From positions 1 through 50,097 of IMG/VR virus record IMGVR_UViG_3300032893_000069: 50,097 nt of DNA; one strand, 5' to 3'. The notes below the pieces were generated by a model that worked only from the letters and a program-made list of their open reading frames with translations, was not told the origin of the DNA and made no database searches. Made by a program: the position numbers and the translations under genes. Shown in pieces: positions 13,725 to 37,732 of the stretch. The first letter of the stretch is position 1. Each line of letters begins with the position of its first letter. The DNA is from a virus. Taxonomy: Duplodnaviria > Caudoviricetes.

Positions 13725-13735
13725 AGGAAATCAAT

Positions 13736-15013: not shown

Positions 15014-15014
15014 T

Positions 15015-15983: not shown

Positions 15984-15984
15984 T

Positions 15985-16335: not shown

Positions 16336-16345
16336 GAGAAAAAGC

Positions 16346-16756: not shown

Positions 16757-16760
16757 AAAC

Positions 16761-18020: not shown

Positions 18021-18022
18021 TT

Positions 18023-18829: not shown

Positions 18830-18833
18830 GATT

Positions 18834-20618: not shown

Positions 20619-22517
20619 ATGCCGAACGATACTCCCAAGACGCTGCCGCCTGACTTCTTTCAGAAGCAGGCTACGGAAACGCCGCAAACGCTTCCACCGG
20701 ACTTTTTTTCTTCAAAAGCAGCAGCAGTTGAAACACCTGACCCGACAAAACCCGACCCCACGGCAACTGGGTTAATGAAAGAGTACGATTCAAAAGTAGC
20801 GACGCCTTACAGAATGGAGCAATGGCTACCCATACCTGGGTTAATGGGTGGGCCGCATCCTAATCCGACGCAAGCACAAGAAGATTACGTCAATAAGCGA
20901 TTGCCGATGGTGGACCCATACATTCATGGCGTTCGCAGGAACGTGGCTGAACTTGCTGGTGGGATGGCGGGCGGAGAATTTTTCGCAGGAGCATCCAAAG
21001 GATTGCCGTGGCTCATGCGGTTGCTCGCTTCTTCGTCGGGAGCTGGTGCCGGTATGGGAGTAGGTGGTCTGGTTACTGGAGAAAAACCTAAAGAAGCACT
21101 GCATGATGCTGCCGTTGGAACGCTATTCACTGGCGCTGCGGAAGGCGCAACTGCTGGAGTTTTGAAAGCAACAGAAAAAGTGGCTGGGTCTAAACTCGTT
21201 AAGGAAGTTTTGAAAAGCAAGGTAACCCAGTTAGAGGAAAAACACGCAGCGGAAGCCGCGCAAATCAAGGCCGACTACGATAAAGAACTGGCCGCCCATC
21301 AAGAAGAAGTGTCTAAAATTCAGAAAGTAAACGAACAGAAGATGGCGGAGCACCAAGAGAGATTAAACCGAATTGAGCAACGCTATCAAAAGAAAGTTGC
21401 GGAGCATCAGGCAAAGGTGCAAGAAGCAGACTTGGAATACAAAAAGCGCGTCGAAGAACACAAGCAAAAGGTTGCCGACGTAAAACGAGACTATGCGCAA
21501 AAATTGGCACAGCATGAGAAGGCAACTAAGGATGTGTCTGTAAAACAATCGCAAGCGCAAGCAAAGCAGGGGTTGGCCTTAGAGCATCAAAATGAAATGG
21601 CTGGACTGGTCAAAGAAAATCTGGAACTTACCAAAGAGAAAATCAACAAAGAACTTGGTGCGGAATTTGATGCAGTGAACGACGCAGTACAAAAAAGAAA
21701 TCCAACGGTCAAGGTTGCCAATGCGGAGCGCGAAGCGCGTGGCCATCTTTACAATCCCGACAGCGTGGCAGCGTTCAACAATATAATGGAGAATGTGTCA
21801 GGGAAGTTGAAAATGACCGACTTCGGTATTCTACGTAAAGCATATTCTAATTTGAATGAAATCCTCTATGGAAACAGGGAATTGCCTCCCGATCTTTATC
21901 AAGCGGTGAAAGTCGTTAGAGACTCACTCGGCAAGGACTTGCAGGCGGCGGCGAATAAAGTTGGGCTTGGCGGGAAATATAGCAAGGTGATGGCCGATTA
22001 CGGAGATTTTAAGGATGTGTGGGATGATACTTCCGCAATCGCTAAAGGTGGTTCGCCCATCCGAAAAGTTCTTGACGCAAAAGATCCCGCTTATGTGATT
22101 GACCAATTCAAGGGAAAAGCGGGGGACCGTTTAGTAGATGACATCGGGAAGTATGCAAAATATGGAGGGGACAAGGCCCTCGCTGGTCAGCTAAAAGGCT
22201 TTATTGAAAAAGTGGAATCGTTTCCATCCACTGCGCCGGAATTGCCGAAAGCGCCATCCCGTCCGTCGTTTCCTAAAGAGCCGGAACGGGGCGCAGCACC
22301 GAAAGCACCAGAGGCTCCGTATAAGCCAAAAGCGCCAACACTTAGGGATATACCAAAGGCTCCAGAACCTCCGCAACTCACGCCATTTGACCGTGAAGCG
22401 GTGGCACGGGCGATTCTTGCAGACCGTATCAAGAAAGCGATTATGTACGGCGGCGCGGCGGCGGGCGGCGGATATTTGTACGAACTTCTGGGGAAAAAAA
22501 CTCCCCCTGTACCCTAA
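20619..22517 (+). CDS. ejection / internal virion protein (putative)
   Basis: Duplicated TLPPDFF motif, Gly-zipper hydrophobic segments, long coiled coil, Pro-rich tail. Confidence 0.55.
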   Translation: MPNDTPKTLPPDFFQKQATETPQTLPPDFFSSKAAAVETPDPTKPDPTATGLMKEYDSKVATPYRMEQWLPIPGLMGGPHPNPTQAQEDYVNKRLPMVDPYIHGVRRNVAELAGGMAGGEFFAGASKGLPWLMRLLASSSGAGAGMGVGGLVTGEKPKEALHDAAVGTLFTGAAEGATAGVLKATEKVAGSKLVKEVLKSKVTQLEEKHAAEAAQIKADYDKELAAHQEEVSKIQKVNEQKMAEHQERLNRIEQRYQKKVAEHQAKVQEADLEYKKRVEEHKQKVADVKRDYAQKLAQHEKATKDVSVKQSQAQAKQGLALEHQNEMAGLVKENLELTKEKINKELGAEFDAVNDAVQKRNPTVKVANAEREARGHLYNPDSVAAFNNIMENVSGKLKMTDFGILRKAYSNLNEILYGNRELPPDLYQAVKVVRDSLGKDLQAAANKVGLGGKYSKVMADYGDFKDVWDDTSAIAKGGSPIRKVLDAKDPAYVIDQFKGKAGDRLVDDIGKYAKYGGDKALAGQLKGFIEKVESFPSTAPELPKAPSRPSFPKEPERGAAPKAPEAPYKPKAPTLRDIPKAPEPPQLTPFDREAVARAILADRIKKAIMYGGAAAGGGYLYELLGKKTPPVP

Positions 22518-22858: not shown

Positions 22859-24142
22859 GTGCGCATCTGCTTCATTTCTCGCTGGAATGAGGGCGGATGG
22901 TTCGCTTGGCTCTGTAAGCAAGCGGGCCATGACGTTATGCTTGTCGTTGAGGACGACCATTACGCCAAAGCCCTCTCCGGCCTAATTGATGCAAAGCCGT
23001 CTCCCGGAAACGCAGCCGACTACGATCTCATTGTTTACGACACCAGCGGTCTTGGTGAAGATGCAGACGAATCCCGCCTGATTACCCCCACCATCGGTGG
23101 CAGCAAACTAGCAGACACTCTTGAACATGATCGCGTAGCGGGCCTTGAATTTATGGAACGCTGCGGCATTCGTGTGCCTCCGTGGGAGCACTTCACGGAC
23201 GTTGCTGACGGCATCAGATATATCAAGCAAAGAAAACGGCCTGTAGTTTTTAAGCCTTGCGGGGATGGAGCCGATACATCATGCACCTACGTATCAACGT
23301 CGGCGGAAGACATGCTCCAGTACATCGACGTGCTCTACCGGAAGAATCCGCAGAAGGAATTTGTACTGCAAGAAGTTGTGAAGGGGACCGAAGTTTCCGT
23401 AGAGATGTGGATGAACGAGAGCGGCTTCTACGCTGTCAACATGACACTGGAAGCGAAGAAGCTCATGGCAGGCAATATTGGCCCTGCTACCGGATGCGCC
23501 GGGAATGTGTTGTGGATGGCGGGGCTTGGTGAGCCAACCGTATTCCAGCGTGGATTAAAAAAGGCGTTTGAGCCGCTGAGGGAACTTGGCTACGTCGGGA
23601 TGATTGACTTGAATTCAATCGTCACCGACGAAGATGTGTTTGGGCTTGAATGGACGCCGCGTTTTGGCTACGAAGGAACATGCAATCTGACGCGCCTTCT
23701 ACCGATAGACTTTGGGGAATTCATGGGGCGCATCGCTGAAAACGCACCCATGCCAACGCTCACGCCGAAAGAAGCGTTCTGCTCCTCCATCCGAATCGGC
23801 ATCCCTCCTTACCCGCTATCCGAACTGCCTAAAAAACTTTACCGAGAGGGCGTTCCAATCGAAGGATTATCTCCTGATAAGTTAGAGCATTTCTTCGCCA
23901 GAGACGTTCGCTTGGAAGAAAATAATGAGGACCGACTTGAAACGGCGGGCGTGGACGGTTGGATCGGGTCCGTGCTCGCTGTGGGACCAACGCTACACAA
24001 TTCATTCTCGGCTGCAACCGACATGGTGAAGGCGCTAAAAATTCCAGACATGATGTACCGAAACGATCTTGAACCCAATTTCGTGAAAAGGTATCTTGAA
24101 CTCAGAGACGGTGGTTGGCTCAGGACAAGCTACGGAACATGA
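22859..24142 (+). CDS. PurD-like ATP-grasp ligase
   Basis: LEHDR, VVFKP, QEVVKGTEVS, KKLMAGNIGPATGCAG and LEWTPRFGY correspond to GAR synthetase motifs. Confidence 0.8.
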   Translation: MRICFISRWNEGGWFAWLCKQAGHDVMLVVEDDHYAKALSGLIDAKPSPGNAADYDLIVYDTSGLGEDADESRLITPTIGGSKLADTLEHDRVAGLEFMERCGIRVPPWEHFTDVADGIRYIKQRKRPVVFKPCGDGADTSCTYVSTSAEDMLQYIDVLYRKNPQKEFVLQEVVKGTEVSVEMWMNESGFYAVNMTLEAKKLMAGNIGPATGCAGNVLWMAGLGEPTVFQRGLKKAFEPLRELGYVGMIDLNSIVTDEDVFGLEWTPRFGYEGTCNLTRLLPIDFGEFMGRIAENAPMPTLTPKEAFCSSIRIGIPPYPLSELPKKLYREGVPIEGLSPDKLEHFFARDVRLEENNEDRLETAGVDGWIGSVLAVGPTLHNSFSAATDMVKALKIPDMMYRNDLEPNFVKRYLELRDGGWLRTSYGT

Positions 24143-24281: not shown

Positions 24282-27200
24282 ATGTGGCGTCCACTTTATC
24301 TCGCCCTAGCCCTCCTACTGTTGTGCCCCTTAGCCTTTTGTCAGACCACAGCCGTTTCCGGGACGATCACTGACGCCAGTGGGCAGGCGTGGTTTGGTGG
24401 AACCTACTCAGTTTCTTTCAAGCCTTCACCTTCAAACCCTTTTGGGCCGTACTATTACCAAGGTGCGCCGTTCAACACGTTCCAGAGCTATCATGGCTCG
24501 CTCAACGGCTCAGCGGCCTACAGCCAATCGCTGCCCAGCAACACAGCGATTAAGCCGGCTGGTTCGACTTGGGTGTTCACTTTTTGTCCGCTTGCCAGTT
24601 CGACGTGCTACACGATGCCGCAAGGCATCACCGTAACCGGGGCTACGCAAACGTACTCGCCAACGCCTCCCGGCATCAGCATCAGTCTGATCCTCCCGTT
24701 TGAGGGACCTGTCCGCGCATACTCTGATTCGGAAATTTCAGCGGCAGCGATTGGGTCCATCTACTACAACCTCGTTTCGTCCATCTCCCGGCAATGCACA
24801 GCGGTCAACACTGCTAATCAGGCGTGCACGGCATGGCAGAACATCGGGGGAAGCTCTAGCACGGGACAGGTTACGGCTTCCGCCACGGCGGAGCAATTTG
24901 GTGCGAGTCCGTCCGCTTCCGCATCCACCAACACGGCAGCAATTCAGAGTGCGCTAAATGTGGGCGGCACGGACACTTTATCCACCTGCGGGACCTACCA
25001 GGTCAACGCCCCGCTGGTGATTAGCAGCAATACGCGCTTTATTGTCGCGCCGTGCGTGGAACTCTTCCAGGCGAACGGCACCAACAACAATATGATCGTG
25101 AGCCATGCGTTCACGCAGCGCGGCTACCTGTCTGGAACCTTCACGTATGTTTCTGGAGCAAGCGGTTGTCCAGCGAACACCACGCAATATGTGGCTTTCA
25201 TCAACGGCAACGGTGTGGGTGGCCACGGGACAATCTCAATTAACAACAGCGGCGTCCCCACGGGGAACGTCACGCTCGACAATCCGGGTGCGTACTACAG
25301 CAGCACCACACCGACCACAGCGGCGATCTACAACTCCAGCGGCACCTACGCCTGCGGCAGCACGGCAACGCAGACAAACCCTGCGACGTTCTCTGGCGGG
25401 ACCGTGGTTAACCCGACTACGCCCGTTACTCTCACGTGGAGTGCGTCCACTCCCGAGCAGGTCACAGTCAACTGCGGCGCTGCAATCGCCCCATGCTCCA
25501 CGTTCTACAATGGCGGAAACACGCTGGCGCAGCAAGCGTACTCCACAATTTCTAACGCTTACCCTTCCGCGCTGAATTGCACCTGTTTGGTCGAGACAGT
25601 TCCATCCAGCAGCAGCTACACCTACCGGCTACGCCGCAACCCGATTTTCACCACGCAGACGACTGCTGCTTCCGTGACAAGCAATGTGGCGACACTGACA
25701 GCAGGAAGTAACCCGCAACTGCTTGGCTTCGCGGCAGGGCAATCTATCTCAGTGACCGGATTCAGCGGGAGCGATACCTACTTCAATGGGACGTACACGA
25801 TCTCCACGGTCACTTCGACGCAGATCACTTACGCGCTGACGCACGCCAACGGCAGCGCGACCACCAACGGCGTCGTTGCCCTAAACGGTGTCACTACGGA
25901 CCACGGCGGCTCTGTTGTCGCCATGCAAGCGGACCAAAATATCATCATCGAAGGCGGACAGTGGGACTACAACGGGCCAAACAATAGCTCGGCAAACGGC
26001 TACACCATCGGGTCCACCATCGTAATGTTTGCGGCGCAGAACGTGGAAATCCGCGACATCAATTTCATCCAGCCCAAGTACAACACTGTCCTATTCGGCG
26101 CGGTTTCCGACTTCCACCTGCACGATCTTACGGATGAGGGTAGCGGTGCCGTGCAGTTTTTCGAGTGCCAGGGACCTTGCTACAACGGCGAAGTTGACCA
26201 CATCACTTCAACCGGATGGGATGATGGGATGTCTATGTTGACGCGCATCTCTTCCGGCTATTACTCAAACGTCATTCTGTCCTATGGTGACGTGCAAAAC
26301 TCTGGCTTCCGCCACATCAATCGGCTCAATCCAAACAACGTCAATTCGGGTGCCACCGGCGAAGTGATGTTCTACGGCAGCCAGTTTGAATACATGGGCG
26401 GCGTCTATGCGCGGGACATCGGCGGATCTCCAAGTTTGCAGGGTGGAGCGGGGGGAACAAATGACGTGGCGTGCGTCGGAGTGGCATCACTTTTTCCCAA
26501 CACCACGATTGATACCGTAGACATTGAAAACGTGAACGGTTCCTGCACTTGGCAGGTGCGCATTGCTGCGACTTCGCCCGACACCACGAAGGTCAATCAC
26601 CTTACGGTAAAAAACGTCACCTGCAATCCGCAGCAAAGTTCTGGCGGCGAAGGCGAAGAGTGCATTCAGTTCACGGGCTATGTGACTATCGGCAAAGTCG
26701 AAATTGAAAAGCTCACGTACACCAGCACCTCGCACGCGGTTGGCAGCGTCCCCGTAATCGAGTCTGGAGCGAACATTCAAGAAATGGATGTGACTGATGC
26801 GAACGTGCAGCCTTCTGGCATAGGCGCTCCCATTACGTTCATTCAAATCAACGGAATCCCCGGCGTCAGTTCCCAGATCGTCAAACTAAACATCTCGCGC
26901 CTTATGATGGGGCCAACCTTCATAACGCCTGCCGTGGTGGTTGACGGGTCGCTAGAAAACACGGCAATGATCACGATTATCAAGGACAGCACGTTCAACG
27001 CTTACGAGGCGGTTCTGTTGAACACAACCGCCACTGCGGTAAACCGCACCTACATACTGCGTGACAACACCATGACCGGAATGGTCAATGGTGCAGTGGA
27101 CATTGGTCCGGCTGGCGGCACAATAAACGTATACAGCAGCGGCAACTCCATGAGTGGAACGGCATACGTGGCCCCGGCGCTCAACACCTGCGGAACACTT

Positions 27201-28097
27201 TGCACGGTAAATCTCTATGATGGTGGCGAACGTGGATCGTGGACCTACAGCAATGCGGGGGTGGCGGTATTCACATCCGTAGCTAACGCATCTGGTGGGC
27301 ATACCACGTACACGGGAACCGTGAGCGTATGTCCTGCCGTGGGCATCTTGGTCAACATTTCTGGATTTTCTACTTCCGCCAATAACGGCTACTTCCCGTT
27401 TGTTTCCTGCGTTCCTGGGGTTGGCAGTGGAACGATGACGGTTTCCAACTCAAGCGGTGTAAGCGAAACAGCTTCCGCTTCTGCCGCTTTTGCGCTGGTC
27501 AACATGATTCCACCGGGACCGTGCCAGGGTGCTCCCGCAATTTTTGGAACGGGATTCAACACTGGGACCGTCACTGGCCCAAGTCCCTGCGCGTTCAAGA
27601 TCACTGTGGGGAGTGTTAGCCCTGGCAATAGCGCAGACCTTGCGATGCCGTGGTACGCGCAGAATGGATGGAATTGTGCGGTATCGAATTTAACAAACTT
27701 TTCACGCGCTATCTTTCAAACTTTTTCCAGCGTCAACACGGCCAGCTTTAGCAGTCAGCAGCAAACACTCAATTCTACATATGCCGGAGGCAGCCAAGCC
27801 ATCTCCAGCATCGCTGCCTCAAGCGGTGGGGTAGCGGTTTACACGTTCACTTCGACTCCCGCGAATATCGCAGTCAATTCGATAGTGGTGGTCAACGGCG
27901 CGGTGAACAATGCGAACAACGGCGCGTACATCGTAACGGCGGTGAATCTCGGGGCAAAAACGGTGACGCTGGCTAACAACGCCGCTGTAATTGAAGGCAG
28001 TTCCACGGCCACTGCGTTTGCGCTTTTCGGTACGACTTGGGCCAATCAAAACTTTACGAACGGGGACCAGTTGCTTTTCCAATGCTCGTTTTACTGA
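24282..28097 (+). CDS. tailspike-like protein with signal peptide and beta-helix region
   Basis: MWRPLYLALALLLLCPLAFC|Q; AEQFGA...NTAAIQSAL...GTY pectate-lyase-like start; FCCH-like beta repeats. Confidence 0.7.
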   Translation: MWRPLYLALALLLLCPLAFCQTTAVSGTITDASGQAWFGGTYSVSFKPSPSNPFGPYYYQGAPFNTFQSYHGSLNGSAAYSQSLPSNTAIKPAGSTWVFTFCPLASSTCYTMPQGITVTGATQTYSPTPPGISISLILPFEGPVRAYSDSEISAAAIGSIYYNLVSSISRQCTAVNTANQACTAWQNIGGSSSTGQVTASATAEQFGASPSASASTNTAAIQSALNVGGTDTLSTCGTYQVNAPLVISSNTRFIVAPCVELFQANGTNNNMIVSHAFTQRGYLSGTFTYVSGASGCPANTTQYVAFINGNGVGGHGTISINNSGVPTGNVTLDNPGAYYSSTTPTTAAIYNSSGTYACGSTATQTNPATFSGGTVVNPTTPVTLTWSASTPEQVTVNCGAAIAPCSTFYNGGNTLAQQAYSTISNAYPSALNCTCLVETVPSSSSYTYRLRRNPIFTTQTTAASVTSNVATLTAGSNPQLLGFAAGQSISVTGFSGSDTYFNGTYTISTVTSTQITYALTHANGSATTNGVVALNGVTTDHGGSVVAMQADQNIIIEGGQWDYNGPNNSSANGYTIGSTIVMFAAQNVEIRDINFIQPKYNTVLFGAVSDFHLHDLTDEGSGAVQFFECQGPCYNGEVDHITSTGWDDGMSMLTRISSGYYSNVILSYGDVQNSGFRHINRLNPNNVNSGATGEVMFYGSQFEYMGGVYARDIGGSPSLQGGAGGTNDVACVGVASLFPNTTIDTVDIENVNGSCTWQVRIAATSPDTTKVNHLTVKNVTCNPQQSSGGEGEECIQFTGYVTIGKVEIEKLTYTSTSHAVGSVPVIESGANIQEMDVTDANVQPSGIGAPITFIQINGIPGVSSQIVKLNISRLMMGPTFITPAVVVDGSLENTAMITIIKDSTFNAYEAVLLNTTATAVNRTYILRDNTMTGMVNGAVDIGPAGGTINVYSSGNSMSGTAYVAPALNTCGTLCTVNLYDGGERGSWTYSNAGVAVFTSVANASGGHTTYTGTVSVCPAVGILVNISGFSTSANNGYFPFVSCVPGVGSGTMTVSNSSGVSETASASAAFALVNMIPPGPCQGAPAIFGTGFNTGTVTGPSPCAFKITVGSVSPGNSADLAMPWYAQNGWNCAVSNLTNFSRAIFQTFSSVNTASFSSQQQTLNSTYAGGSQAISSIAASSGGVAVYTFTSTPANIAVNSIVVVNGAVNNANNGAYIVTAVNLGAKTVTLANNAAVIEGSSTATAFALFGTTWANQNFTNGDQLLFQCSFY

Positions 28098-28104
28098 GGT
28101 AATT

Positions 28105-31026
28105 ATGAAGAAAATAACCCTGCTCGGTCTGCTCTTGTTCGTGGCGGCACTCCCCGCTTTCGGGCAGAGCACCACGGTCAGCGGAACAGTCCAAGACCTG
28201 GGAAGCCAAACATGGAATAACGGCAGTATCGAATTTGACTTCGTGCCAAACCCGCAGTACCCGAGTCTCCCGCAGTACACGTGGACCGGAGGGACGCTAA
28301 GCTATTCGGTCAAGGGAACGTTAGGAGGCTCTGGGACGTACAGCGTAAGCGTGCCAACAAACAGCGCCATCACGCCTGGTGGTTCGCAGTGGACGATTAA
28401 GGTGTGCTCGCTTGCCACATTCCCCTGCTATACCACTACGCCGGCGACGATCACGGGAGCCACGCAGACAATCAATGTGACTCCTCCGGCCATCAGCATT
28501 AATTTGGTGGCAAATCCCACGGCGAGTGCTTATGTGGACGGTGAGATTAGCGGCGCTATTCTTGGATCAACTTATTTCAATTTGACTAGTTCGTTGCAAC
28601 GGCTTTGCACGGCGCTGACTAGCGGTGCGTGCTCGACGTGGGCGAACAACGGAACAGGCGGCAGTACGGTGTATCCGTCTGGAACTGGCATTACGACTGT
28701 CACGGGCGGCTCTGCTTGGGGTACTACCCTAACAGGCGCGGCGGCTGGCGACCTGATCTACTATAACGGCTCTGCGTGGGCAAAGTTTGCGGGGAATAGC
28801 GGAGCAACGAACTGCTTGACTGAAAACACAAGCGGTGTGCCCTCATGGGCAACGTGCGGGAGTGGCGGGGGTGGCACTGTCACAAGTTTTGCGGCTCCAT
28901 CGGGGAGTTGGCCATCTTGGTTGGTCCCAACGGTCACAAACTCTACAACCACGCCATCACTGGCGGTGGCGGCGAGTTCGATTCCAAATAACGCACTGGC
29001 CTTCTCTTCCATCACTATTGCGGGAACGCCGATTTCACTTGGAGGTTCCACTTCATCTTTCCCAAGCCCCGGCGCTATCGGTGGAACAACGCCAGCGGCG
29101 GGCACGTTTACTACGCTGACGGCCAATACTAGTTTTACCCTTAACGGCGGGACTGCCCAGACAGGGACGCAAGGAACGGACACCAAACTTCTGACAGCCG
29201 GGACGGTGAGCGGGACGGCAGCAAACCTTTGCACTGATGCGAACGGCGGCGCGACGACATCAGGATGCACAAGTGGTGGCAACACAACGTCAACGTCATT
29301 GACCTCTGGCTACTATGCAAAGGCGAACGGCGCAAACTCCATCGTCAATGGAACGTGCGACAGCGGCATCTCCACGGCGAACACTTTCACGTGCTCGGAT
29401 ACAGCGGGCGCATCGTTCGCTGAGGTGACGGTGACAGGCGGCTCCAACGCTGGCGCGGACGTGTTTACGGCGGGCACGGCACAAGGGCACGCGACAGCAA
29501 GCACCGTGACGCTGGAAGCTCCTACTTCGGTGACAGCTTACGAAGTCCAACTGCCTACGGCGGCGGGAACGGGCCTCAACCTGTGGACAAACAGCGCGGG
29601 AGTGGTGGCGCAAAGCCTTCTGGCTTCCGCTGCGGCTGGCGACCTTGTGGTAGGCAACGGGACTACGTGGACAAAATTTGCAGGCAACGCATCAGGGACT
29701 AACTGCTTGCAGGAAAACTCATCCGGCGTGGCATCATGGGCTTCGTGCGGCAGCGGGTCTTTTGCTTTCCCTATCACCGTCTCAGGTACAACAACCTCAG
29801 GCGGCATTCCATATTTCAGCAACACGACAACGCTTACCTCGTCTGCTTTGCTGGCGACAAACCACGTCCTGCTTGGCGGCGGTGCGGGCGGAGCACCAAC
29901 CTCCGACTCCAACCTTGACGACGGCGCAACCACGGCTAACACGCTGACCTATGCAGGAAGCGCGGGAATTTCAGCCAAATCACTGACCACGACTGGTTCT
30001 TCGGCTGGAGCACTAGTCCTCACGCAAGGGACTGCAAACTCTGCTGGCACAACCAACATCACGATTCAGGCACCTACGTCTGTCACTTCGTATACGCTTG
30101 CCCTGCCTTCGGCGGCAGCGAGCGGCGTTCCTGTATGGTCAAACTCTTCGGGAACGGTGACGGAGAGCATCAGCACGGCACCTAGCTTCTCTGCGCTGAA
30201 CTGCGGCGTAGCATCCACAACGGCCTGCGTGATTACCGGGCAAGGCTCAACCAGTGGAACCGCAACCCTCACCTGGCCAGCAGTTGCGGGGACAGCCACT
30301 AACCCAATCGTCTCCAGCAATGTTATTCAAGTGCCGCAGAACGATGGAGTGCATTCCACGGCGGGATACAGTTTCTCCTCCTGTGGCGCAACCGTTTTCT
30401 GCGGAATGTGGGTTATCAACGGGTCAAGCCACTTGGTCCTGAGTGCTGGCGGTTCGGGAAATATCTACATGGAACCGAACGATGCAGCGACATTCACATT
30501 CACCACCGGAGGGGAGTTGCAGCCAGTAGCGGTGGGCACGCAGACGATTGGCGATGCGACAAACTACCTTTCAAAGGTCTACTCCAACAATTACTATGCC
30601 GGGACGGGAGCAACGGCAGGCATCACTGCCGCAGTGGTATGCAACAGCACGTTCGGCTCAACCAACGGACTCGTCACCACCTGCACAAACACTTCTGATC
30701 CTCGACTTAAAAACATCGAAGGAACTTTGAAATACGGCCTAAAAGAAGTCAATGCCGTCACGCCAATCACTTTCAAGTGGAACGACTTGGCCCACAACCT
30801 AATCTATGGCTTGCAAGATGATTCCCAAATTGGTTTCAACGCGGAAGAGTTGCAAAGCGTGATGCCGGAAATTGTGGGAACAGAAAATCACGATGGAGTG
30901 GATTACCGAACCATCAAATCTGACCGCGCTCTTATTGCTACGCTCTGGAACGCTGTGAAGCAGCAGCAGGCTCAGGTAGAAGAACTCAAGCGGCAAGTCG
31001 AAGAACTCAAAGCAAAGGTGCAATAG
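28105..31026 (+). CDS. tail fibre with signal peptide and C-terminal intramolecular chaperone (peptidase S74)
   Basis: MKKITLLGLLLFVAALPAFG|Q (ATG 28105, GAGG SD); SDPRLKNI...FKWN...GFNAEEL...LWNAVKQ plus coiled coil; internal repeats. Confidence 0.8.
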   Translation: MKKITLLGLLLFVAALPAFGQSTTVSGTVQDLGSQTWNNGSIEFDFVPNPQYPSLPQYTWTGGTLSYSVKGTLGGSGTYSVSVPTNSAITPGGSQWTIKVCSLATFPCYTTTPATITGATQTINVTPPAISINLVANPTASAYVDGEISGAILGSTYFNLTSSLQRLCTALTSGACSTWANNGTGGSTVYPSGTGITTVTGGSAWGTTLTGAAAGDLIYYNGSAWAKFAGNSGATNCLTENTSGVPSWATCGSGGGGTVTSFAAPSGSWPSWLVPTVTNSTTTPSLAVAASSIPNNALAFSSITIAGTPISLGGSTSSFPSPGAIGGTTPAAGTFTTLTANTSFTLNGGTAQTGTQGTDTKLLTAGTVSGTAANLCTDANGGATTSGCTSGGNTTSTSLTSGYYAKANGANSIVNGTCDSGISTANTFTCSDTAGASFAEVTVTGGSNAGADVFTAGTAQGHATASTVTLEAPTSVTAYEVQLPTAAGTGLNLWTNSAGVVAQSLLASAAAGDLVVGNGTTWTKFAGNASGTNCLQENSSGVASWASCGSGSFAFPITVSGTTTSGGIPYFSNTTTLTSSALLATNHVLLGGGAGGAPTSDSNLDDGATTANTLTYAGSAGISAKSLTTTGSSAGALVLTQGTANSAGTTNITIQAPTSVTSYTLALPSAAASGVPVWSNSSGTVTESISTAPSFSALNCGVASTTACVITGQGSTSGTATLTWPAVAGTATNPIVSSNVIQVPQNDGVHSTAGYSFSSCGATVFCGMWVINGSSHLVLSAGGSGNIYMEPNDAATFTFTTGGELQPVAVGTQTIGDATNYLSKVYSNNYYAGTGATAGITAAVVCNSTFGSTNGLVTTCTNTSDPRLKNIEGTLKYGLKEVNAVTPITFKWNDLAHNLIYGLQDDSQIGFNAEELQSVMPEIVGTENHDGVDYRTIKSDRALIATLWNAVKQQQAQVEELKRQVEELKAKVQ

Positions 31027-31027
31027 C

Positions 31028-31663
31028 ATGAAACTTGTGAACTGGAACCGTACAATTTCCGTATGGCTGGCGAGTGCGATCCTTGTTCTCGCGCCGCTTT
31101 CTGGATATGCGCAAAACCCCGTAGTAGTTGGGGGAAAGGCAATACTAGGCGGAAAGGCTTCTGTTGGTGGTGGGAGCGGAGTAACCACCGTTACCTGTGG
31201 CTTGACTACGGCAGGATCAAATACTGACGGTGGGAACGCGGACATTCCTTTTGCTACTCCTTGCGTGACTGGCTCCGATCCTTCCGGTTACACCGTGCAG
31301 TCCTGTTCCTACTATGCGGTCGCAACTTCAAACGCGGGAAGATGCGGCGTATATACCGATAGCAGCGGGAATCCCAATACACTACTCTGCCAATCAGCTA
31401 CTATCAGCTCGCCTTCGGTTGGCTTTAATGTGCTTTCGTTAAGCGGATGTGGCACGTTGACTAATGGGATAACTTACTGGATAGGGTTCATCACTAGCGA
31501 TAGCGCGAACGCGGAAAAGTACAACACAGGAAGCTGCCCCGGATACGGTGGCGGCTCAAAGTACGGTACAACTCAAGGAAGCGCCACGCTGCCTGCATCA
31601 TTTGGATCAAATACGAACATTGGGAATTGCTATTCAGCCTACATGACGCTGGTGCCAAATTGA
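31028..31663 (+). CDS. secreted beta-sandwich fibre-associated protein
   Basis: Signal peptide ...VLAPLSGYA|Q; GVYTDSSGNPNTLL...LTNGITYWIG. Confidence 0.6.
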   Translation: MKLVNWNRTISVWLASAILVLAPLSGYAQNPVVVGGKAILGGKASVGGGSGVTTVTCGLTTAGSNTDGGNADIPFATPCVTGSDPSGYTVQSCSYYAVATSNAGRCGVYTDSSGNPNTLLCQSATISSPSVGFNVLSLSGCGTLTNGITYWIGFITSDSANAEKYNTGSCPGYGGGSKYGTTQGSATLPASFGSNTNIGNCYSAYMTLVPN

Positions 31664-34620
31664 GAAAATTGCTTCTGCTTCTGCTGCTCGTAGCTCCCAC
31701 CTGCTACGGCCAGAGTTGCACGCTCGGACTGACGAGCACGCTTCAGACCAATCAGCTTTGTCCCTCACGTGACCCTGTGGATTATTCGCAGTACGGACTT
31801 CCCGCGTCGTATCCGAATGGGGAAACGCCAGTGGACCGCTACACGCCTCCGGTCCGCACGCAATGCGGGTCTACGCTCCCGGCATCAAGCTCGGTGGCAA
31901 CGGTGCAAACTGCCATCAATAATTGTAGTAGCGGCGGTGGCAAAGGCTACGTGCTCATCGGGCCGGGGACATTCACCGTAAACTCCAACCTATCGTTCAA
32001 TCCCTTTGGGACGGGCAATAACTATGTGGAATTGCGCGGCAGCGGCCCGATGCAGGCCACGATGCAGATGATAGGCGACGGTCAGATTACGTTTGGCGCT
32101 ATCAACAACATCGTCAGCCAGGCAATTACTTCGACTCCGGCGCAGGGTTCTACCACAGTCACAATCGCCACCAATGGAAGTCCAGGAATCAGCGTAGGGA
32201 TGATTGCAGAAATCAGCCAGTGCGCGAATGGCGTAAGTGGGAGCGGTTGCACGACTGGCGTCCCTTACGACAACGGCGGGGACTTCAACTGCGGTGAGAA
32301 TGTGATCTGCCAGATTTATCCCGGTGAGGGCTTGAGCAGTGGGGCTGGAGGTATTCTTCAAGTTGTGCGTGTCACAAATGTCAGCCCATCGAACTGCACG
32401 ACAAACTGCGTTATTACCTTCACGCCTCCATTGGTGGATTCTGCCTGGTCAACCGCGAATAGCCCTCAAATCACATGGTACGCCCCTTCGACACTCGGCC
32501 ACGCGATGTATGGCGACGGTATCACCGGCTTCACGCTGGATTTCAGCCAGTCCACGCTCTCTCCCGCTGGACATCAACTGGAATTTCAGAACTGCTACGG
32601 CTGTTATATCTATGGCAATCGCATCATTGGCAACAACGTGGTCAGCGGAAGCTCCACAGTCACGCAGAACATCTACGCCAACGTGCTGATGAACTCCATC
32701 ATTGGCAACAACTATATTGTTCCCGACTGGCCCCCGGCAAACGTCAACCACGAATCGGTTATTTCCGAGATTCAGCAGCACGCTGGCCTGAGCATGGACT
32801 TCAACAACATCATGGAAGGTCACATCCAGTGGGAAGGCTTTGGCCACATGACCGGGCACGTCATCGCCTACAACTATTTCAGCCACACGCACACGGCCTA
32901 CTACGAAGGCTCATTCAATCACGTAGTCGGCGGGCGCTATTTGCTCTATGAGGGCAATCAGGGGATTCGCTTTGATGAGGATGGGGCGCACGCCATCCAT
33001 ACCATGAACCTGTGGTTTCGCAACTATCAGGTTGGTTACGACCCGCCGTATGTCTCGACTGGGCCGGGATGTTTCGACCTCGCTTCTGGACGTGTCGAGA
33101 ACCTCATCGGCAACGTCTGCGGGAATCCGACAACGAGTTCCAGCACGAAAATCAGCACCTACCGCACGGATACTTCTACGGGCTGCTCACCCAACACTAA
33201 CTACGTCTACTTGCTTGGCTGCGTCAATCAGACAGGCGGCGAAATCGCTCCAGTGGACACGCTGGCCACTCCTACCAGCATGTTCTGGGGCAACGTAACG
33301 AACATCACGCAGGGAAGCGATACGCCAGCAAACTCCGGTATCCGCTTCGTGAGTTCGGAGGTTCCCTCGACACTGCCAGCCTATGCTGGGACGCAGACGC
33401 AAATCGGCACGGGTAATGGAAGCACCACATCATTCAGTGGCACGGTTGCCAGTGGTGGACTCCCCTGCATCTACGGCAATGAAACAGTAGTAGCTGAACC
33501 AACACAGGCCGTAAATGACCCTGGACTAAATGGCAGCCTGAGCGGAACAGGAAGCAGTAGCGGGTCCATTAATTGCACAACAGGAGCAGTGAGCGTTACG
33601 TTCCAGAGCGCCCCAGCGAACGGCACGGCCATTATGGTCAACACCGTCAAAAACGTTGGCGGCAGCAGCTTCTTTCAGAATCCCGTGCCCAGCAGCCAAA
33701 CATTGCCGAAGTCATACTTCCACAATTCAGGCACACCGCCGCCATTCTGGAAAGTATGTACGTCCTTTAGCACGTTCCCGACTTGCACAGGAACAACCAC
33801 GCAACCGTGGCCCTACGCTGGCCCCGATGTTACTGGTGGACCTTACGTGAATGGCCACGCTTACGACAACCCTGCTCGCGTCGCTTATGCCAATCTTCCC
33901 GTGGATACAAACTATCAGTTCACCTATTCCATCTCTGGCTCAAGCTGGGCTGGTGGGGTTGAAACCATCACCATTAGCGGCCTCCCGACAAACAACTACT
34001 TCGAGGGCGGTTTCCGGTTTAGCGGCGCAAACTCCGCGTGCATCCCCACTAGTGGCGTGTCATACACGGGCAGGTCCGACAACGAAATCCTGATGACGAC
34101 CTCCAACGCCTCATCTGGACAGTTCACTTATTCACTGCCCATCAATCCCGGCGTAAGTTGCACAGGTTCGGTGCTGTATCCTGATGTTCGGCAGTTTGAT
34201 GCATCCATCTATAGTGCCAGCACTGGCGGCTCTGTCACGCTAATTCCCTATTCGTACAATTTCGGCTCCGTGAACGTAGGCGGCAACTCCGGCCCCACAA
34301 CTTTCACGCTGACGAACAACTCCTCCGCGTCGGCGACGAGCCTTTCGGCGACGATCACGGGGACCAACTCGGGAGACTTCTCGATCAGTTCCAATACCTG
34401 CACGGGCACACTGGCGAATGGTGGGGCGACTTGTACGCTGAATGTGACGTTTACGCCAGGCGCGGCGGGATCACGATCGGCGAGTCTCAGCATTTCCTAT
34501 TCGGGTGGCGACGGAGCATCGCCGCAGACCTCGACGCTTTCCGGTACGGGAGTAGGTGTTAGCATTTCTCACAAAGTTCTTGGTACAGTTCAAGTGGAAG
34601 GGACGGTGGTTGTCGAATGA
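31660..34620 (+). CDS. secreted beta-helix protein with C-terminal ASH/choice-of-anchor D-like Ig domain
   Basis: TTG start overlapping the upstream stop, MRKLLLLLLLVAPTCYG|Q; VQTAINNC...GPGTF; NFGSVNVG...FTLTN...CTLNVTFTP...LSGTG. Confidence 0.7.
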   Translation: MRKLLLLLLLVAPTCYGQSCTLGLTSTLQTNQLCPSRDPVDYSQYGLPASYPNGETPVDRYTPPVRTQCGSTLPASSSVATVQTAINNCSSGGGKGYVLIGPGTFTVNSNLSFNPFGTGNNYVELRGSGPMQATMQMIGDGQITFGAINNIVSQAITSTPAQGSTTVTIATNGSPGISVGMIAEISQCANGVSGSGCTTGVPYDNGGDFNCGENVICQIYPGEGLSSGAGGILQVVRVTNVSPSNCTTNCVITFTPPLVDSAWSTANSPQITWYAPSTLGHAMYGDGITGFTLDFSQSTLSPAGHQLEFQNCYGCYIYGNRIIGNNVVSGSSTVTQNIYANVLMNSIIGNNYIVPDWPPANVNHESVISEIQQHAGLSMDFNNIMEGHIQWEGFGHMTGHVIAYNYFSHTHTAYYEGSFNHVVGGRYLLYEGNQGIRFDEDGAHAIHTMNLWFRNYQVGYDPPYVSTGPGCFDLASGRVENLIGNVCGNPTTSSSTKISTYRTDTSTGCSPNTNYVYLLGCVNQTGGEIAPVDTLATPTSMFWGNVTNITQGSDTPANSGIRFVSSEVPSTLPAYAGTQTQIGTGNGSTTSFSGTVASGGLPCIYGNETVVAEPTQAVNDPGLNGSLSGTGSSSGSINCTTGAVSVTFQSAPANGTAIMVNTVKNVGGSSFFQNPVPSSQTLPKSYFHNSGTPPPFWKVCTSFSTFPTCTGTTTQPWPYAGPDVTGGPYVNGHAYDNPARVAYANLPVDTNYQFTYSISGSSWAGGVETITISGLPTNNYFEGGFRFSGANSACIPTSGVSYTGRSDNEILMTTSNASSGQFTYSLPINPGVSCTGSVLYPDVRQFDASIYSASTGGSVTLIPYSYNFGSVNVGGNSGPTTFTLTNNSSASATSLSATITGTNSGDFSISSNTCTGTLANGGATCTLNVTFTPGAAGSRSASLSISYSGGDGASPQTSTLSGTGVGVSISHKVLGTVQVEGTVVVE

Positions 34621-34967
34621 AGAAAGCGATATTTTTGATTGCAGCAATTCTCGCCGGGGTGTTCATCGGCAGGGCGCAGACTACGACTTCTAGCCCTTCG
34701 CAGATTTCAGGGGCCGTAAATCCTGGGCCGCACACATCCTGCACGGTCACAGCAAATACCACGCAAATCTGCTTTGCCTCGGATGGCCTATGGTTTTCAG
34801 CGAACGGATCGGCCTACGTGCAGGTAGCAAGTGTTGGGGGAACTACCGGCATCCAGTCCATCAGCGTGAACGGTGGGACGCCTTGCACGGGACCGGCCTG
34901 CTCCATCACGGTTCCAACGAAAGCGATTTCGAGCACGACAGCAACAACGACTACGACAATCCAATGA
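34617..34967 (+). CDS. small secreted fibre-associated protein
   Basis: MKKAIFLIAAILAGVFIGRA|Q; Thr-rich with paired Cys. Confidence 0.6.
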   Translation: MKKAIFLIAAILAGVFIGRAQTTTSSPSQISGAVNPGPHTSCTVTANTTQICFASDGLWFSANGSAYVQVASVGGTTGIQSISVNGGTPCTGPACSITVPTKAISSTTATTTTTIQ

Positions 34968-34980: not shown

Positions 34981-35163
34981 ATGAAGTTCAACTGGCATGT
35001 TGTAGGGCAAGTGCTTTTGACGTTGGGGCAGGTACTCAACTGGGCGTCCGGCACAGTCCCACCCAAGTATCAGCCGTGGGTGATGTGCGGGCTGAGCGTC
35101 GTGCAGGCTCTCTTGGGACTCTATAACCACTTCTTCACCCCGGCAGGTCAACGTATCCCATGA
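34981..35163 (+). CDS. holin-like membrane protein (putative)
   Basis: 60 aa with two hydrophobic helices; GAGGGAGG SD. Confidence 0.5.
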   Translation: MKFNWHVVGQVLLTLGQVLNWASGTVPPKYQPWVMCGLSVVQALLGLYNHFFTPAGQRIP

Positions 35164-35402
35164 TGCAGATTCCTTCACTGGATACGGTAATTGTCTCAGC
35201 GGCCACGATAGCAGCGGTCCTTGTGGCCAACTGGCTCCAAGCGGCTGCGCACAAGAAGGAAGCTAAAGCACTATGGGAGCGCCTGATTTACACGCTGGAG
35301 GAGCATCCGCTTCACAGCCATGACGAGGAAAAGGGTTCAGGTGAGCCGCTGACTGAATCCAAACTGCGCTATCCCAAAACGATGTTCACCAATTTCAAGT
35401 AG
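35160..35402 (+). CDS. single-TM membrane protein
   Basis: N-terminal hydrophobic helix and charged tail; last gene of the + strand operon. Confidence 0.5.
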   Translation: MMQIPSLDTVIVSAATIAAVLVANWLQAAAHKKEAKALWERLIYTLEEHPLHSHDEEKGSGEPLTESKLRYPKTMFTNFK

Positions 35403-35443: not shown

Positions 35444-35473
35444 TTGACAACAAGTAAGCTCCTTTGGTACTCT
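35444..35473 (+). promoter_or_regulatory. transposase promoter overlapping the left inverted repeat
   Basis: TTGACA-18 nt-TACTCT with extended -10 TG. Confidence 0.55.
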
Positions 35474-35490
35474 CTGGATGTGAGGCTGAT

Positions 35491-36399
35491 ATGCGAGTTC
35501 CGCAACACATCCCAAAGCACCTGCGTTACACAATGGCCGACTTCAATGAAGAGTTTCCGAACGATGAAGCCTGCCTTGAATACATCAAAGAGCAGCGCTG
35601 GCCCGATGGCGTCACCAAGTGCGAGAAGTGCCGCAAAGAACGCAAGCACTACCGCGTGAGTGGCCGCACCGCTTATGCCTGTGACCATTGCGGTAATCAT
35701 ATCTACCCGTTGGCCGGGACCATCTTTGAAAAGACCACAACTCCGCTCAAGACTTGGTTCTATGCAATGTACTTGATGGGTTCCACTCGTTGTGGCATCT
35801 CCGCAAAACAAATTCAGCGGGAAACTGGCGTCACCTACAAAACCGCTTGGCGCATTTTCCGGCAGGTCCGTACTCTTCTTTCCGATGGAGACCTGCAACT
35901 GGAGGGGCCGACGGTTGAGGTAGACGAAACTTACTACGGTGGCGTTCGCAAGTATGGAACTGGCCGACCGATGCGCGGCGACCGCAAAAAGACTCCGATC
36001 GTCGCCGTCGTACAGCGCCGGGGAATGGCGGTTGCGAAAGTGATTGCAGCCGTCACCGCCGAGAACCTTGTTGGGACTATTGACAAGCATGTTGTTCCCG
36101 GCAGCACTGTCTACACTGACGAATTGAACTCTTACAACACAGTGGGCCATGACAAGCGGTATCGGCATCGGACAATTAATCACCGCTCCCGCGTTTACGT
36201 TCGCGGCGACATTCACACCAATAGCGTCGAGGGATTTTTCAGCTTGCTCAAGCGGGGAATCGGCGGAGTCTACCACTCCGTAGGCCAGAAATACTTGCAG
36301 AGCTACGTGGATGAGTTCTGCTTCCGCTATAACCGGAGATACAAAGGCAATCAGCAGTTCAAGGCTATTTTGGAGAGGGCTTCGAAGAGGGCGTCTTGA
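35491..36399 (+). CDS. tnp: IS1595-family DDE transposase
   Basis: Zinc ribbon CEKC..CDHC, GTIFEKT, VEVDETYYGG, VYTDE, HTNSVEGFFSLLKRG, EFCFRYN. Confidence 0.92.
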   Translation: MRVPQHIPKHLRYTMADFNEEFPNDEACLEYIKEQRWPDGVTKCEKCRKERKHYRVSGRTAYACDHCGNHIYPLAGTIFEKTTTPLKTWFYAMYLMGSTRCGISAKQIQRETGVTYKTAWRIFRQVRTLLSDGDLQLEGPTVEVDETYYGGVRKYGTGRPMRGDRKKTPIVAVVQRRGMAVAKVIAAVTAENLVGTIDKHVVPGSTVYTDELNSYNTVGHDKRYRHRTINHRSRVYVRGDIHTNSVEGFFSLLKRGIGGVYHSVGQKYLQSYVDEFCFRYNRRYKGNQQFKAILERASKRAS

Positions 36400-36499
36400 T
36401 AGCCTTGTTGAGCAGGGCGTGGAATGCGCTCTGCGTGTAGGGCCGCATTTTCTTGCGGCTCTCATTGCGTGGTTTTGCCTTCCTGGTTTGAGACGTCAT
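36365..36499 (-). CDS. 44-aa basic peptide convergent with the transposase
   Basis: Hand translation MTSQTRKAKPRNESRKKMRPYTQSAFHALLNKAIKTPSSKPSPK. Confidence 0.4.
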   Translation of the reverse strand: MTSQTRKAKPRNESRKKMRPYTQSAFHALLNKAIKTPSSKPSPK

Positions 36500-37271
36500 T
36501 GCTTGATTCTACCCCCTCTGGCTCAATCTTTGAGAACAGAATATGTGGTTCTATCTGCTTGTAAAAATGTTCCGAATCATCCCATTTCTGTAAATGCCGA
36601 GAAATGAAGTAAGCGCATAGGTCAGCTAATTGTAAGCCGATGGAATCCCTGGAACTTCCGAAGTACATATCATCATGTAGATGCCATGCGACATTGGAAA
36701 AGTCAGGATTCTGCAAATCCACCTTATGTGGGCGAAGTTGGACGCGAAATTCACGAAATGATTTTCTGGACTGATTTCTTTTTCCCTTATCCTCGCAATC
36801 ATCCATGACAACCAGCGTAGATCGTTCGGTGTAAGAATTAACCTCAAAGCCGCTTAATAATTTAGGCGTATTTACCCATGCCTTGACCCCCTGCAAACAA
36901 TTTCTAAAACAAATGTCTTCCTTGCTCGCCGAACCGTGCGAAAAATATTTGGCGTCCCACTCTTTCTTACTCACGGCACCATAGAAAACCGGAATCTTCA
37001 AAGCGCTAAGCTGGTTCAATAATATTTTGATAACTCCATGCCTCCTAAATTCCTCGACTCCTTCAAATGCTCCATGACAGCCGAACAAATCTGACGCTTT
37101 AAATTCAACAAAATCCTCCCATTTTTCAGGTGGCAATAAGTATTGAATAGATGCGCCAATCACAGTTTCCAATTTAGAAAGAATCAAGTCAGAAATAAGA
37201 ACGCCAGCCAGAACCACGAAGTTACTACCCCTTCGCTGGGTCTCGGAATCGTCAATATAGGCCAGATACAC
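36462..37271 (-). CDS. DUF3800-family protein (IS passenger)
   Basis: YIDDS at the N-terminus, VEFKASDL, S..SIGLQLADLCAY; AT-richer than flanks; GTG start with GGGAGG SD. Confidence 0.8.
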   Translation of the reverse strand: MYLAYIDDSETQRRGSNFVVLAGVLISDLILSKLETVIGASIQYLLPPEKWEDFVEFKASDLFGCHGAFEGVEEFRRHGVIKILLNQLSALKIPVFYGAVSKKEWDAKYFSHGSASKEDICFRNCLQGVKAWVNTPKLLSGFEVNSYTERSTLVVMDDCEDKGKRNQSRKSFREFRVQLRPHKVDLQNPDFSNVAWHLHDDMYFGSSRDSIGLQLADLCAYFISRHLQKWDDSEHFYKQIEPHILFSKIEPEGVESSNDVSNQEGKTTQ

Positions 37272-37294
37272 AAAGAGGTCCTCCCTAGAAGGCA

Positions 37295-37732
37295 TTATTC
37301 ACCCCCTCGCTGTACTTGTCCAGAGGGGATACTTACCAGGTCCGAAGTCGTCGTAGGCACATCCACGCCGCTCAACACTTGCAGTTCTCGATCGCCACTT
37401 TGCCACACTGCTTCCCGCACAGCACGCGGCATGATGATGCAACCCTCTGAGGCCGCTCCGGGGTGCTCCCGCGAGTCTCCGTGCATCATAAAGCCCGACC
37501 TGCCAAACATCTCGTTTGATGCGTAGGGCGACAGCGGTATTGCGTAGGGGCCATGCGTAGGCGAGTTCTCAGGCTGGAGGATGAGGTATTTGCCGCACGG
37601 GATGGGTCCTTGATTGGGGAGCATTTGCGCGGCAGGGTCGTTCTTAGCGATACCCAGACCTGAATAGCCTTGCGCCAGTAGCTTACCCGTGGGGTCCAGA
37701 AGTTCTCCGGTGAGTTGGATGTAGGTGAACAT
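37295..37732 (-). CDS. Tlde1/DUF2778-like L,D-transpeptidase-fold peptidoglycan enzyme
   Basis: GYSG...NDP...GPIPCGKY...GRSGFMMHGD...ASEGCII (catalytic His and Cys); the last 13 codons are IS-derived. Confidence 0.8.
   Translation of the reverse strand: MFTYIQLTGELLDPTGKLLAQGYSGLGIAKNDPAAQMLPNQGPIPCGKYLILQPENSPTHGPYAIPLSPYASNEMFGRSGFMMHGDSREHPGAASEGCIIMPRAVREAVWQSGDRELQVLSGVDVPTTTSDLVSIPSGQVQRGGE

Follow-up and report, generated by a model that had tools for sequence, protein, structure and literature searches.

Can a tailed phage send its receptor-binding fibres through the secretory pathway of its host before they join the particle? The question is raised by a block of five consecutive genes at the end of the tail operon in IMG/VR virus record IMGVR_UViG_3300032893_000069, the genome of an SU10-like podophage from soil that is rated 100% complete and whose 50,097 bases constitute the window analysed here. 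An initial annotation of this genome had proposed that all five genes encode fibres or spikes with general secretory (Sec) signal peptides, and that their products are exported, oxidatively folded and joined to particles only at or after lysis. The comparative analysis reported below, which works from sequence, supports Sec export with disulfide formation well, and we consider export itself very probable. For the complete chain of claims, in which the block encodes Sec-precursor host-recognition fibres or spikes with small partners that are docked late on an SU10-like podophage infecting, probably, Acidobacteriota, the arguments for and against are about evenly poised.

The block accounts for 21% of the genome and lies after the genes for ejection-like proteins, on the same strand. 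It comprises five open reading frames (ORFs), all on the plus strand and closely packed or overlapping:

24282-28097 (+): gene 1, 1271 amino acids (aa); signal at aa 1-20 (ending …LAFC, then Q) and fibre N-domain at aa 21-190, with a long, variable, Cys-rich C-terminal part and 26 Cys past the signal
28105-31026 (+): gene 2, 973 aa; signal at aa 1-20 (ending …PAFG, then Q) and fibre N-domain at aa 21-184
31028-31663 (+): gene 3, 211 aa; signal at aa 1-28 (ending …SGYA, then Q); 8 Cys
31660-34620 (+): gene 4, 986 aa, with a TTG start at 31660, in overlap with the gene 3 stop; signal at aa 1-17 (ending …TCYG, then Q), 24 Cys past the signal, a C-terminal immunoglobulin (Ig)-like domain and no fibre N-domain
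34617-34967 (+): gene 5, 116 aa; signal at aa 1-20 (ending …IGRA, then Q); 4 Cys

In each of the five N-termini, an n-region of basic character leads into a hydrophobic core, small residues occupy positions -3 and -1, and Gln comes next. The hydrophobicity maxima of the five genes (2.62-3.11) lie within the six highest of 54 ORFs; a DUF3800 protein reaches 2.81 at an internal position (residue 26), exceeding gene 3, and the lipoprotein encoded at 39249-39872 equals gene 3 at 2.62. A rule-based scan flagged seven of the 61 called ORFs, namely the five genes, the Tat-type protein at 1520-1879 and one doubtful small ORF, and the chance that five named ORFs all fall within seven of 61 is 21/5,949,147, or about 3.5e-6. 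In the same scan of the window ORFs, no signal was detected in the portal, capsid, adaptor and ejection-like proteins. Gene calls, like the signal calls, were made heuristically.

The composition of the five products is equally distinctive. They contain 28, 18, 8, 25 and 4 Cys in total, in gene order, against none in the major capsid protein and in the ejection-like proteins gp18023, gp18834 and gp20619, and Ser, Thr, Gly and Asn together make up 42-47% of their residues. In the repeats of gene 2, the spacing between Cys alternates between short (6-14) and long (30-152), defining nine close pairs. This gene also carries a Peptidase_S74 domain (PF13884) at aa 864-924 (about 30694-30876 in the window; E 6.2e-6, 26.8 bits against a cut-off of 22), the start of which reads …TSDPRLKNIEG… and includes an S-D-x-R-x-K-like stretch that may be the S74 catalytic Ser-Lys motif. 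Its product obtains in addition a PHROG tail-fibre match. The descriptive part of the initial annotation is hence borne out: five Sec-type signals followed by Gln, supported by their n-, h- and c-region features and by the rule-based scan; closely paired Cys and richness in Ser, Thr, Gly and Asn; an S74 chaperone on one of the genes, above the Pfam cut-off; and head, tail-core and ejection proteins that are free of signals.

Genes 1 and 2, and only these two, have in common an N-terminal domain of about 165 aa that is specific to phages (the N-domain) and is missing from genes 3, 4 and 5. Homologues of gene 2 align with the N-terminal 16-23% of the protein only, at 45-61% identity, and their C-termini are unrelated. 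To assess conservation of the signals, we collected 45 related viral loci and built a profile of the mature N-domain. In these loci and the window, a signal-like segment precedes the N-domain in 50 of 51 ORFs (45 by rule and five by inspection). All 58 metagenomic homologues present a hydrophobic stretch, 57 of them reaching the threshold of 2.2 and one scoring 2.11, and a signal-like segment was identified in 118 of 122 new representatives of clusters at 50% identity, three of the four misses being N-terminally cut proteins. The domain begins with Gln in 55 of the 58 and in 117 of the 122 proteins. An exhaustive search with a profile that includes the signal region returned 3305 clusters at E<=1e-3 and 2402 at E<=1e-10. 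Proteins with the N-domain were found only on contigs of 75 kilobases (kb) or less.

An alignment of 44 N-domains, 43 of them with an upstream stretch long enough to be scored, was used to examine the putative cleavage site. Position -1 is occupied by Ala in 28 sequences, Gly in ten, Ser in four and Cys in one, so that all 43 carry one of these four residues. Position -3 is Ala in 30, Val in five, Leu in three, Thr in three, Ser in one and Lys in one (Ala, Val, Leu, Thr or Ser in 42 of 43), and position -2 is mostly bulky. Mean conservation differs between the two parts of the alignment, with a pairwise identity of 28.5% in the signal region versus 42.8% in the domain. A segment that drifts in sequence while its charge, hydrophobic core, A-x-A site and +1 Gln are kept is what would be expected of working signal peptides. 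AlphaFold2, run with the same alignment on aa 1-196 of gene 2, returned a model with a predicted local distance difference test score (pLDDT) of 91.7, in which an N-terminal helix, the signal, is followed by beta domains. Signal-bearing genes devoid of the N-domain also cluster around this family, with 30 of 138 genes within two genes of an N-domain gene bearing a signal, versus ten of 327 farther away (p 7e-10).

A second and separate line of evidence comes from the number of Cys residues. Counts were made on de-duplicated proteins of at least 100 aa from the 45 loci and the window. The mature part of signal-bearing proteins contains an even number of Cys in 71 cases, an odd number in ten and none in two (binomial p 1.8e-12), and the corresponding figures for signal-less proteins are 151, 181 and 132. 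When proteins were cut at the start of the profile, which makes the count independent of the cleavage-site rule, the 58 N-domain homologues divided into 56 even, two odd and none without Cys, and the new representatives with a signal-like segment into 104 even, 13 odd and one without Cys. Within the N-domain, the four Cys columns are all occupied in 35 domains, all empty in four, occupied only in the first two in three and only in the last two in two, leaving no broken pair in any of the 44 domains. This pattern points to two disulfides formed by the four Cys.

The only truly signal-less N-domain ORF is a paralogue of 255 aa with a strong ribosome-binding site (L007:4399-5166), and it contains no Cys, which ties the Cys residues to the signal. 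Conserved signals, even Cys numbers, pairwise loss of Cys and this Cys-free signal-less paralogue are together the basis on which export with disulfide formation is put forward. In the same locus, the signal-less gene and, after it, one whose product has a lipoprotein-type leader take up 4399-7614, and a second leader of this type closes a seven-gene fibre block (15454-18165).

The proposed association of these exported proteins with the virion requires a link to the tail. The following genes of the head and tail modules are relevant to it:

5659-7635: SU10-type portal (Pfam, 34.1 bits against a cut-off of 30)
10411-11373: major capsid protein (Pfam, PHROGs)
13553-15013 (+): gp13553, 486 aa, with homologues in 25 loci and no signal; may be the nozzle
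14994-15983 (+): TIG-domain protein, 329 aa (IPT/TIG, E 1e-22), no signal
15985-16335 (+): stub protein, 116 aa, in the tail module, two genes 5' of the adaptor gene
16761-17546 (+): tail adaptor, SU10_adaptor, under the Pfam cut-off (22.6 against 27 bits)
18023-22517: three ejection-like proteins, Cys-free and of low complexity (including gp18023, gp18834 and gp20619)

Homologues of the stub protein were identified in 24 of the 45 loci. In a sister clade, the stub domain constitutes the N-terminus of proteins of 450-1585 aa, in which the last stub strand is followed by a hydrophobic segment, an A-x-A-type site, Gln and a Cys-rich fibre; in two loci (L035 and L036) the fused fibre opens with the N-domain. 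A profile search for such longer stub forms returned 103 proteins, all on contigs of at most 51 kb. In all 103 a hydrophobic segment comes directly after the stub, in 100 there is an A-x-A-type site followed by Gln, and 28 continue with the N-domain. Counted past the site, Cys are even in number in 83 proteins and odd in 16, and one protein has none, cut proteins included. In a further locus (L038), stub and signal-bearing fibre are encoded apart, by two genes that overlap. No conserved start codon was found ahead of the hydrophobic segment in the fused forms; an internal translation start was for this reason rejected, and the fused forms are probably translated as one chain. The signal within such a chain would give rise to a membrane-spanning intermediate or to a polyprotein-like cut by signal peptidase. 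Proteins that are fused in some genomes are classically suspected of working together, and the stub-signal-fibre fusion is the best argument of this analysis for assigning the exported fibres to the tail. In the Atlas, the stub falls among unnamed viral clusters with weak tail-fibre-tip leads.

Gene order and protein architecture are consistent with this association. The block closes the tail operon of the window and, in another clade, N-domain genes are flanked on both sides by tail genes. One N-domain homologue (P0017) carries the Pfam Beta_helix domain. From gene position, modular build, the S74 chaperone and the stub fusion, we infer that the exported proteins are virion parts. What the initial annotation had deduced from the signals has accordingly fared differently in its two halves: export and oxidative folding are supported by the signals and the Cys statistics, and the joining of virion parts at or after lysis stays a proposal, drawn from position, build, S74 and fusion.

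Its description of all five genes as fibres or spikes also holds in part. Genes 1 and 2 are fibre-like, but gene 4 is a relative of a bacterial secreted family of about 750 aa, the members of which match it at 30-38% identity over more than half of its length. Many of these homologues are carried by contigs between 100 kb and 1.6 Mb long, and one is named as Terracidiphilus sp. (Acidobacteriota); a weaker match, confined to the C-terminal Ig-like part, is to Candidatus Korobacteraceae (Acidobacteriota). Gene 4 may hence encode a host enzyme that the phage has captured and uses as a spike, or else a secreted one that stays outside the particle. For genes 3 and 5, no homologue was detected across the 45 related loci. 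The named homologues of gene 4 suggest that the host is probably an acidobacterium, which we offer as a lead rather than as proof.

Gln at position +1 is present in 70 of the 83 signal-bearing proteins of the phage family, and most of 52 bacterial-type gene 4 homologues inspected by eye present a leader ending in Gly or Ala and then Gln. A +1 Gln particular to the fibres is thus not borne out; across phage and bacterial proteins it looks like a general habit of the substrates of the host's signal peptidase. A rule of this kind (the Q-rule) is known for the Bacteroidetes, where most signal peptidase I substrates have Gln right after the site, according to excerpts of PMC5837995; Acidobacteria have 0 occurrences in that paper. 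Whereas the Q-rule was described for Bacteroidetes, the named bacterial homologues here point to Acidobacteriota, which indicates that a Gln following the signal peptidase site is found beyond the former phylum as well. Excerpts of PMC10367356 report five genes, their functions unknown, with Q-rule signals in phages of Porphyromonas gingivalis; their signals are like those analysed here, but the genes are not described there as fibres. A full-text search found no paper joining Acidobacteria, glutaminyl cyclase and signal peptides. A match between the N-terminal 200 aa and a Bacteroidales genome covered only 30 residues of the signal peptide and was judged spurious, and a search of the mature N-domain against 401 Bacteroidota genomes, run with no positive control, gave one marginal match (E 6.9e-4) with an internal stop.

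Several other readings of the block were weighed against export of virion fibres. The proteins might be exported and yet form no part of the virion, acting as late secreted or envelope enzymes or binders, such as slime depolymerases, receptor-destroying or masking factors, or adhesins, with the true receptor-binding protein encoded elsewhere, for instance by the TIG-domain gene at 14994-15983 or by gp13553-15013. The evidence for export and disulfides fits this reading equally well, the kinship of gene 4 with a secreted family represented on contigs of up to 1.6 Mb and in one Terracidiphilus sp. speaks for it, as does the orphan status of genes 3 and 5, and the N-domain resembles the carboxypeptidase-regulatory-like sandwiches of Acidobacteriota and Bacteroidota envelope proteins (Atlas matches with a template modelling score, TM, below 0.5, and PDB matches). 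We nevertheless regard it as unlikely, since the N-domain family occurs on phage-sized contigs only, where its genes are part of tail operons, with tail genes on both sides in one clade, since a conserved N-terminus with swapped C-termini and an S74 domain is the usual build of phage fibres, and since a tail-module protein is fused to the exported part in 103 of 103 long forms. Furthermore, a block of this kind spends 21% of the genome, and the scans with Pfam and PHROGs brought up no further protein that would be a convincing candidate for receptor binding. Lysogen-displayed adhesins, which the initial annotation had offered as an alternative, were rejected as the leading explanation and constitute a weak one: no integrase was detected among the 54 window ORFs in a Pfam scan, and the N-domain occurs only on phage-sized contigs.

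Two further readings retain the virion fibre and reinterpret the hydrophobic segment. If the segment were an uncleaved signal-anchor, the fibre would be tethered in the inner membrane, and in the fused forms a cytoplasmic stub could dock the tail, so that particles would be completed across the membrane and freed at lysis. The single reading frame of the 103 long forms, with no conserved internal start, is what a bitopic N-in/C-out topology would look like, but the -3/-1 rule is nearly perfect, both in the alignment of N-domains and in 100 of the 103 long forms, which argues for cleavage; only 2-10 residues stand ahead of the hydrophobic core in the clade of the window, too few for docking, and a released virion would bear many membrane helices. 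We judge this arrangement quite improbable. Little probability is likewise assigned to a segment that serves no export at all, but forms a buried structural helix or a linker in a fibre with cytoplasmic folding, whose Cys are oxidised only after release. All known tailed phages assemble their fibres in the cytoplasm, and the internal segment of the fused forms could suit a linker. Excerpts of PMC13576161 report disulfides that crosslink a siphovirus tail, and formation after release is possible in principle. The segment, however, drifts while keeping charge, core, A-x-A site and +1 Gln, and is in this respect signal-like and unlike a packed helix; the bacterial secreted homologues of gene 4 share the type of leader, the other virion proteins avoid Cys altogether, and the only signal-less N-domain has lost every Cys.

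Export of virion fibres remains the preferred reading, and a number of observations weigh against it, the siphovirus disulfides among them. The signal calls derive from our own rule set and from conservation among homologues, and not from a trained predictor, and the loci are related to one another, so that their counts do not represent independent events, although all of them point the same way. We know of no described tailed phage that exports its fibres, and joining after export would be an extra step never seen. The membership of the virion is itself argued from gene position, modular build, the S74 chaperone and the stub fusion; genes 3 and 5 without homologues and a host-like gene 4, possibly a secreted enzyme, imply that not all five products need be virion parts, and the host is suggested only indirectly, through the gene 4 homologues. 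In the fused forms the signal is internal, which complicates a simple N-terminal-signal reading. Structure and sequence comparisons add little on the side of the tail. The stub gave no PDB sequence match at E<=10 and only chance-level Pfam matches, and Foldseek searches with the N-domain matched generic beta-sandwiches alone in the PDB (E about 5e-4 to 1e-2, TM 0.31-0.37), comprising transthyretin-like and carboxypeptidase-regulatory-like domains (including carboxypeptidase D domain II), pilin and dioxygenase domains. Against viral models, the same searches returned weak matches to N-termini, some named tail fibre (E from 1.2e-5, TM about 0.4).

In the Atlas, the structure matches of the N-domain are leads to carboxypeptidase-regulatory-like sandwiches, at TM 0.41-0.49. 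The N-domain has no Pfam match, and its predicted fold leaves the binding partner unspecified. PDB sequence searches with genes 1, 2 and 4 returned nothing meaningful.

A sequence of steps can be proposed in which these elements would operate together. The genes would be expressed late, with the tail operon, as suggested by their position and overlaps. Their products would be exported through Sec, and signal peptidase I would cut after the A-x-A-type site and expose Gln. Disulfides, predicted from the Cys statistics, would then form in what is presumably the periplasm, where the fibres would also fold as trimers and the S74 domain of gene 2 would cleave itself. The heads and tail cores of tailed phages form in the cytoplasm, and those of the phage in the window would be assembled there as well. 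Once holin lesions joined the two compartments, or lysis occurred, the N-domain would dock the fibres on the tail, perhaps via the 116-aa stub and the adaptor ring, by analogy with SU10; on the same analogy, the adaptor at 16761-17546 is a candidate for the ring on which fibres dock. In the sister clade, the stub-signal-fibre chain would insert N-in/C-out and be cut by signal peptidase like a polyprotein. In its most general form, the proposal amounts to a two-compartment assembly of all receptor-binding fibres, with a membrane-spanning anchor-fibre polyprotein in one clade, which would be the first export-dependent morphogenesis step in the Caudoviricetes. We advance this general form tentatively, holding it to fall somewhat short of an even chance.

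Several other genes of the genome were noticed in addition:

1520-1879 (+): Tat-type protein, 119 aa, with a twin-arginine-type leader (MSDRRGFLK…)
1991-2575 (+): protein with a DnaJ-type zinc finger and a Cpn10/GroES-like domain, 194 aa, just 5' of the terminase gene
2659-5400 (+): large terminase, 913 aa, with LAGLIDADG_3 at aa 286-330 (Pfam, PHROGs)
17547-18020 (+): HNH endonuclease gene, between the adaptor gene and the next tail gene
22859-24142 (+): ATP-grasp enzyme, GARS_A-like (E 1e-10), directly 5' of the fibre block
34981-35402 (+): two small membrane-protein genes, directly 3' of gene 5
35464-36399 (+): IS1595-family transposase (DDE_Tnp_IS1595, E 4.5e-37, and zinc ribbon), directly 3' of the holin-like genes
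36462-38400 (-): leftward early-type block with DUF3800, a Tlde1-domain protein and an N6/N4 DNA methylase
39249-39872 (-): lipoprotein, 207 aa, with a lipobox leader (…LLSGC), in the early-type block and not close to the lysis genes
46665-47285 (-): ORF with an Imm5-like immunity domain (E 2.2e-12), overlapping the following ORF
46725-48002 (+): serine-rich ORF, 425 aa, with a very long serine-rich run at its start and a weak terpene-cyclase-like match

Homologues of the ATP-grasp enzyme, adjoining or near fibre genes, are present in 30 of the 45 related loci, and this enzyme could modify a tail or fibre protein. The two small genes 3' of the block encode a product of 60 aa with two hydrophobic stretches and one of 80 aa with a single N-terminal hydrophobic stretch, and by position and shape they may be regarded as holin-like. 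The Tlde1-domain protein of the leftward block, with an L,D-transpeptidase-like fold, is possibly the endolysin. Immediately downstream of the holin-like genes, the IS1595 insertion sequence within the phage genome might reveal the host should matching copies turn up in bacteria. Homologues of the Tat-type protein occur in nine of the 45 loci. In the protein encoded just 5' of the terminase gene, the CXXCXGXG stretch scores under its cut-off and the Cpn10/GroES-like domain obtains 26.4 bits against a cut-off of 21.1, suggesting that the product may be a phage co-chaperonin fusion, and LAGLIDADG_3 in the large terminase suggests an intein or a homing-endonuclease insert. Another HNH-like ORF, in locus L034 (about 4560-4990), separates the stub from the signal-bearing fibre gene. 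Only one of the two overlapping ORFs at 46725-48002 (+) and 46665-47285 (-) is likely to be real. No transfer RNA was detected in the window, and a scan for promoters and terminators remained at the level of shuffled sequence (12 promoter-like elements against 9.4 expected, 12 terminator-like against 19.3 expected). Neither the portal nor the fibre N-domain has a tblastn match in 50,697 GenBank phage records, from which we conclude that the lineage is uncultured.

The novelty of these results lies in tail fibres with export signals, since the use of Sec by phages for lysis and conversion proteins and the export of the filamentous receptor-binding protein are known. In a full-text literature search, outside the scope of which most subscription journals lie, no paper was found that describes tailed-phage fibres with signal peptides. 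If confirmed, two-compartment assembly would constitute a new route of morphogenesis, as opposed to the wholly cytoplasmic assembly of textbooks, and a family of at least 2402 protein clusters, in which fibres combine conserved export signals with the mark of disulfides, would bring a further step into phage morphogenesis. Infectivity would thereby be tied to the Sec system, signal peptidase and periplasmic oxidation of the host, creating new host-factor dependencies and routes to resistance. Such an assembly may also explain very stable, disulfide-locked receptor binders in soil phages, and the signature provides a practical rule for spotting receptor-binding genes in uncultured soil phages. 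Should the proteins instead be secreted enzymes outside the virion, remodelling of the host envelope would take up a fifth of the genome in a common type of soil phage.

Several known systems share individual features with the block. Tailed phages use Sec for signal-bearing or signal-arrest-release (SAR) endolysins, for spanins and for conversion proteins. Excerpts of PMC7143992 treat the SAR endolysins, and excerpts of PMC12309495 the Lom conversion protein of lambda. Export is shared with Sec-dependent endolysins, spanins and Lom, but these are not virion appendages. The fibres and tailspikes of podophages are modular, as in gp17 of T7 and the spikes of K1F, K1E, K1-5 and SP6, with anchor or adaptor parts that are separate or fused. 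They likewise combine a conserved N-terminal attachment part with an exchangeable C-terminus, occur as several spikes per genome, and have an anchor that is fused or separate, a part played here by the stub; in contrast to the proteins of the block, the known examples lack a signal and fold in the cytoplasm, and no sequence or fold match between them and the N-domain or the stub was obtained. The cases of S74 (endosialidase-type) chaperones known to us fold in the cytoplasm, unlike the S74 domain described here, which is found on a protein with an export signal.

In SU10 (Kuravirus), the adaptor docks six long fibres and the nozzle six short fibres, according to excerpts of PMC9509320, in which signals on fibres are unmentioned. 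The phage in the window resembles SU10 in its short tail, its several fibre genes and its matching portal family, with the adaptor under the cut-off. A parallel to the proposed mechanism is g3p of the inoviruses, the receptor-binding protein of these filamentous phages, which carries a Sec signal, acquires disulfides in the periplasm and is added to the particle outside the cytoplasm. This is how the present system would work, although there is no homology between the two; and whereas the whole inovirus particle is assembled at the membrane and extruded, the phage described here has a head and tail of the cytoplasmic tailed-phage type, to which the exported fibres would be joined.

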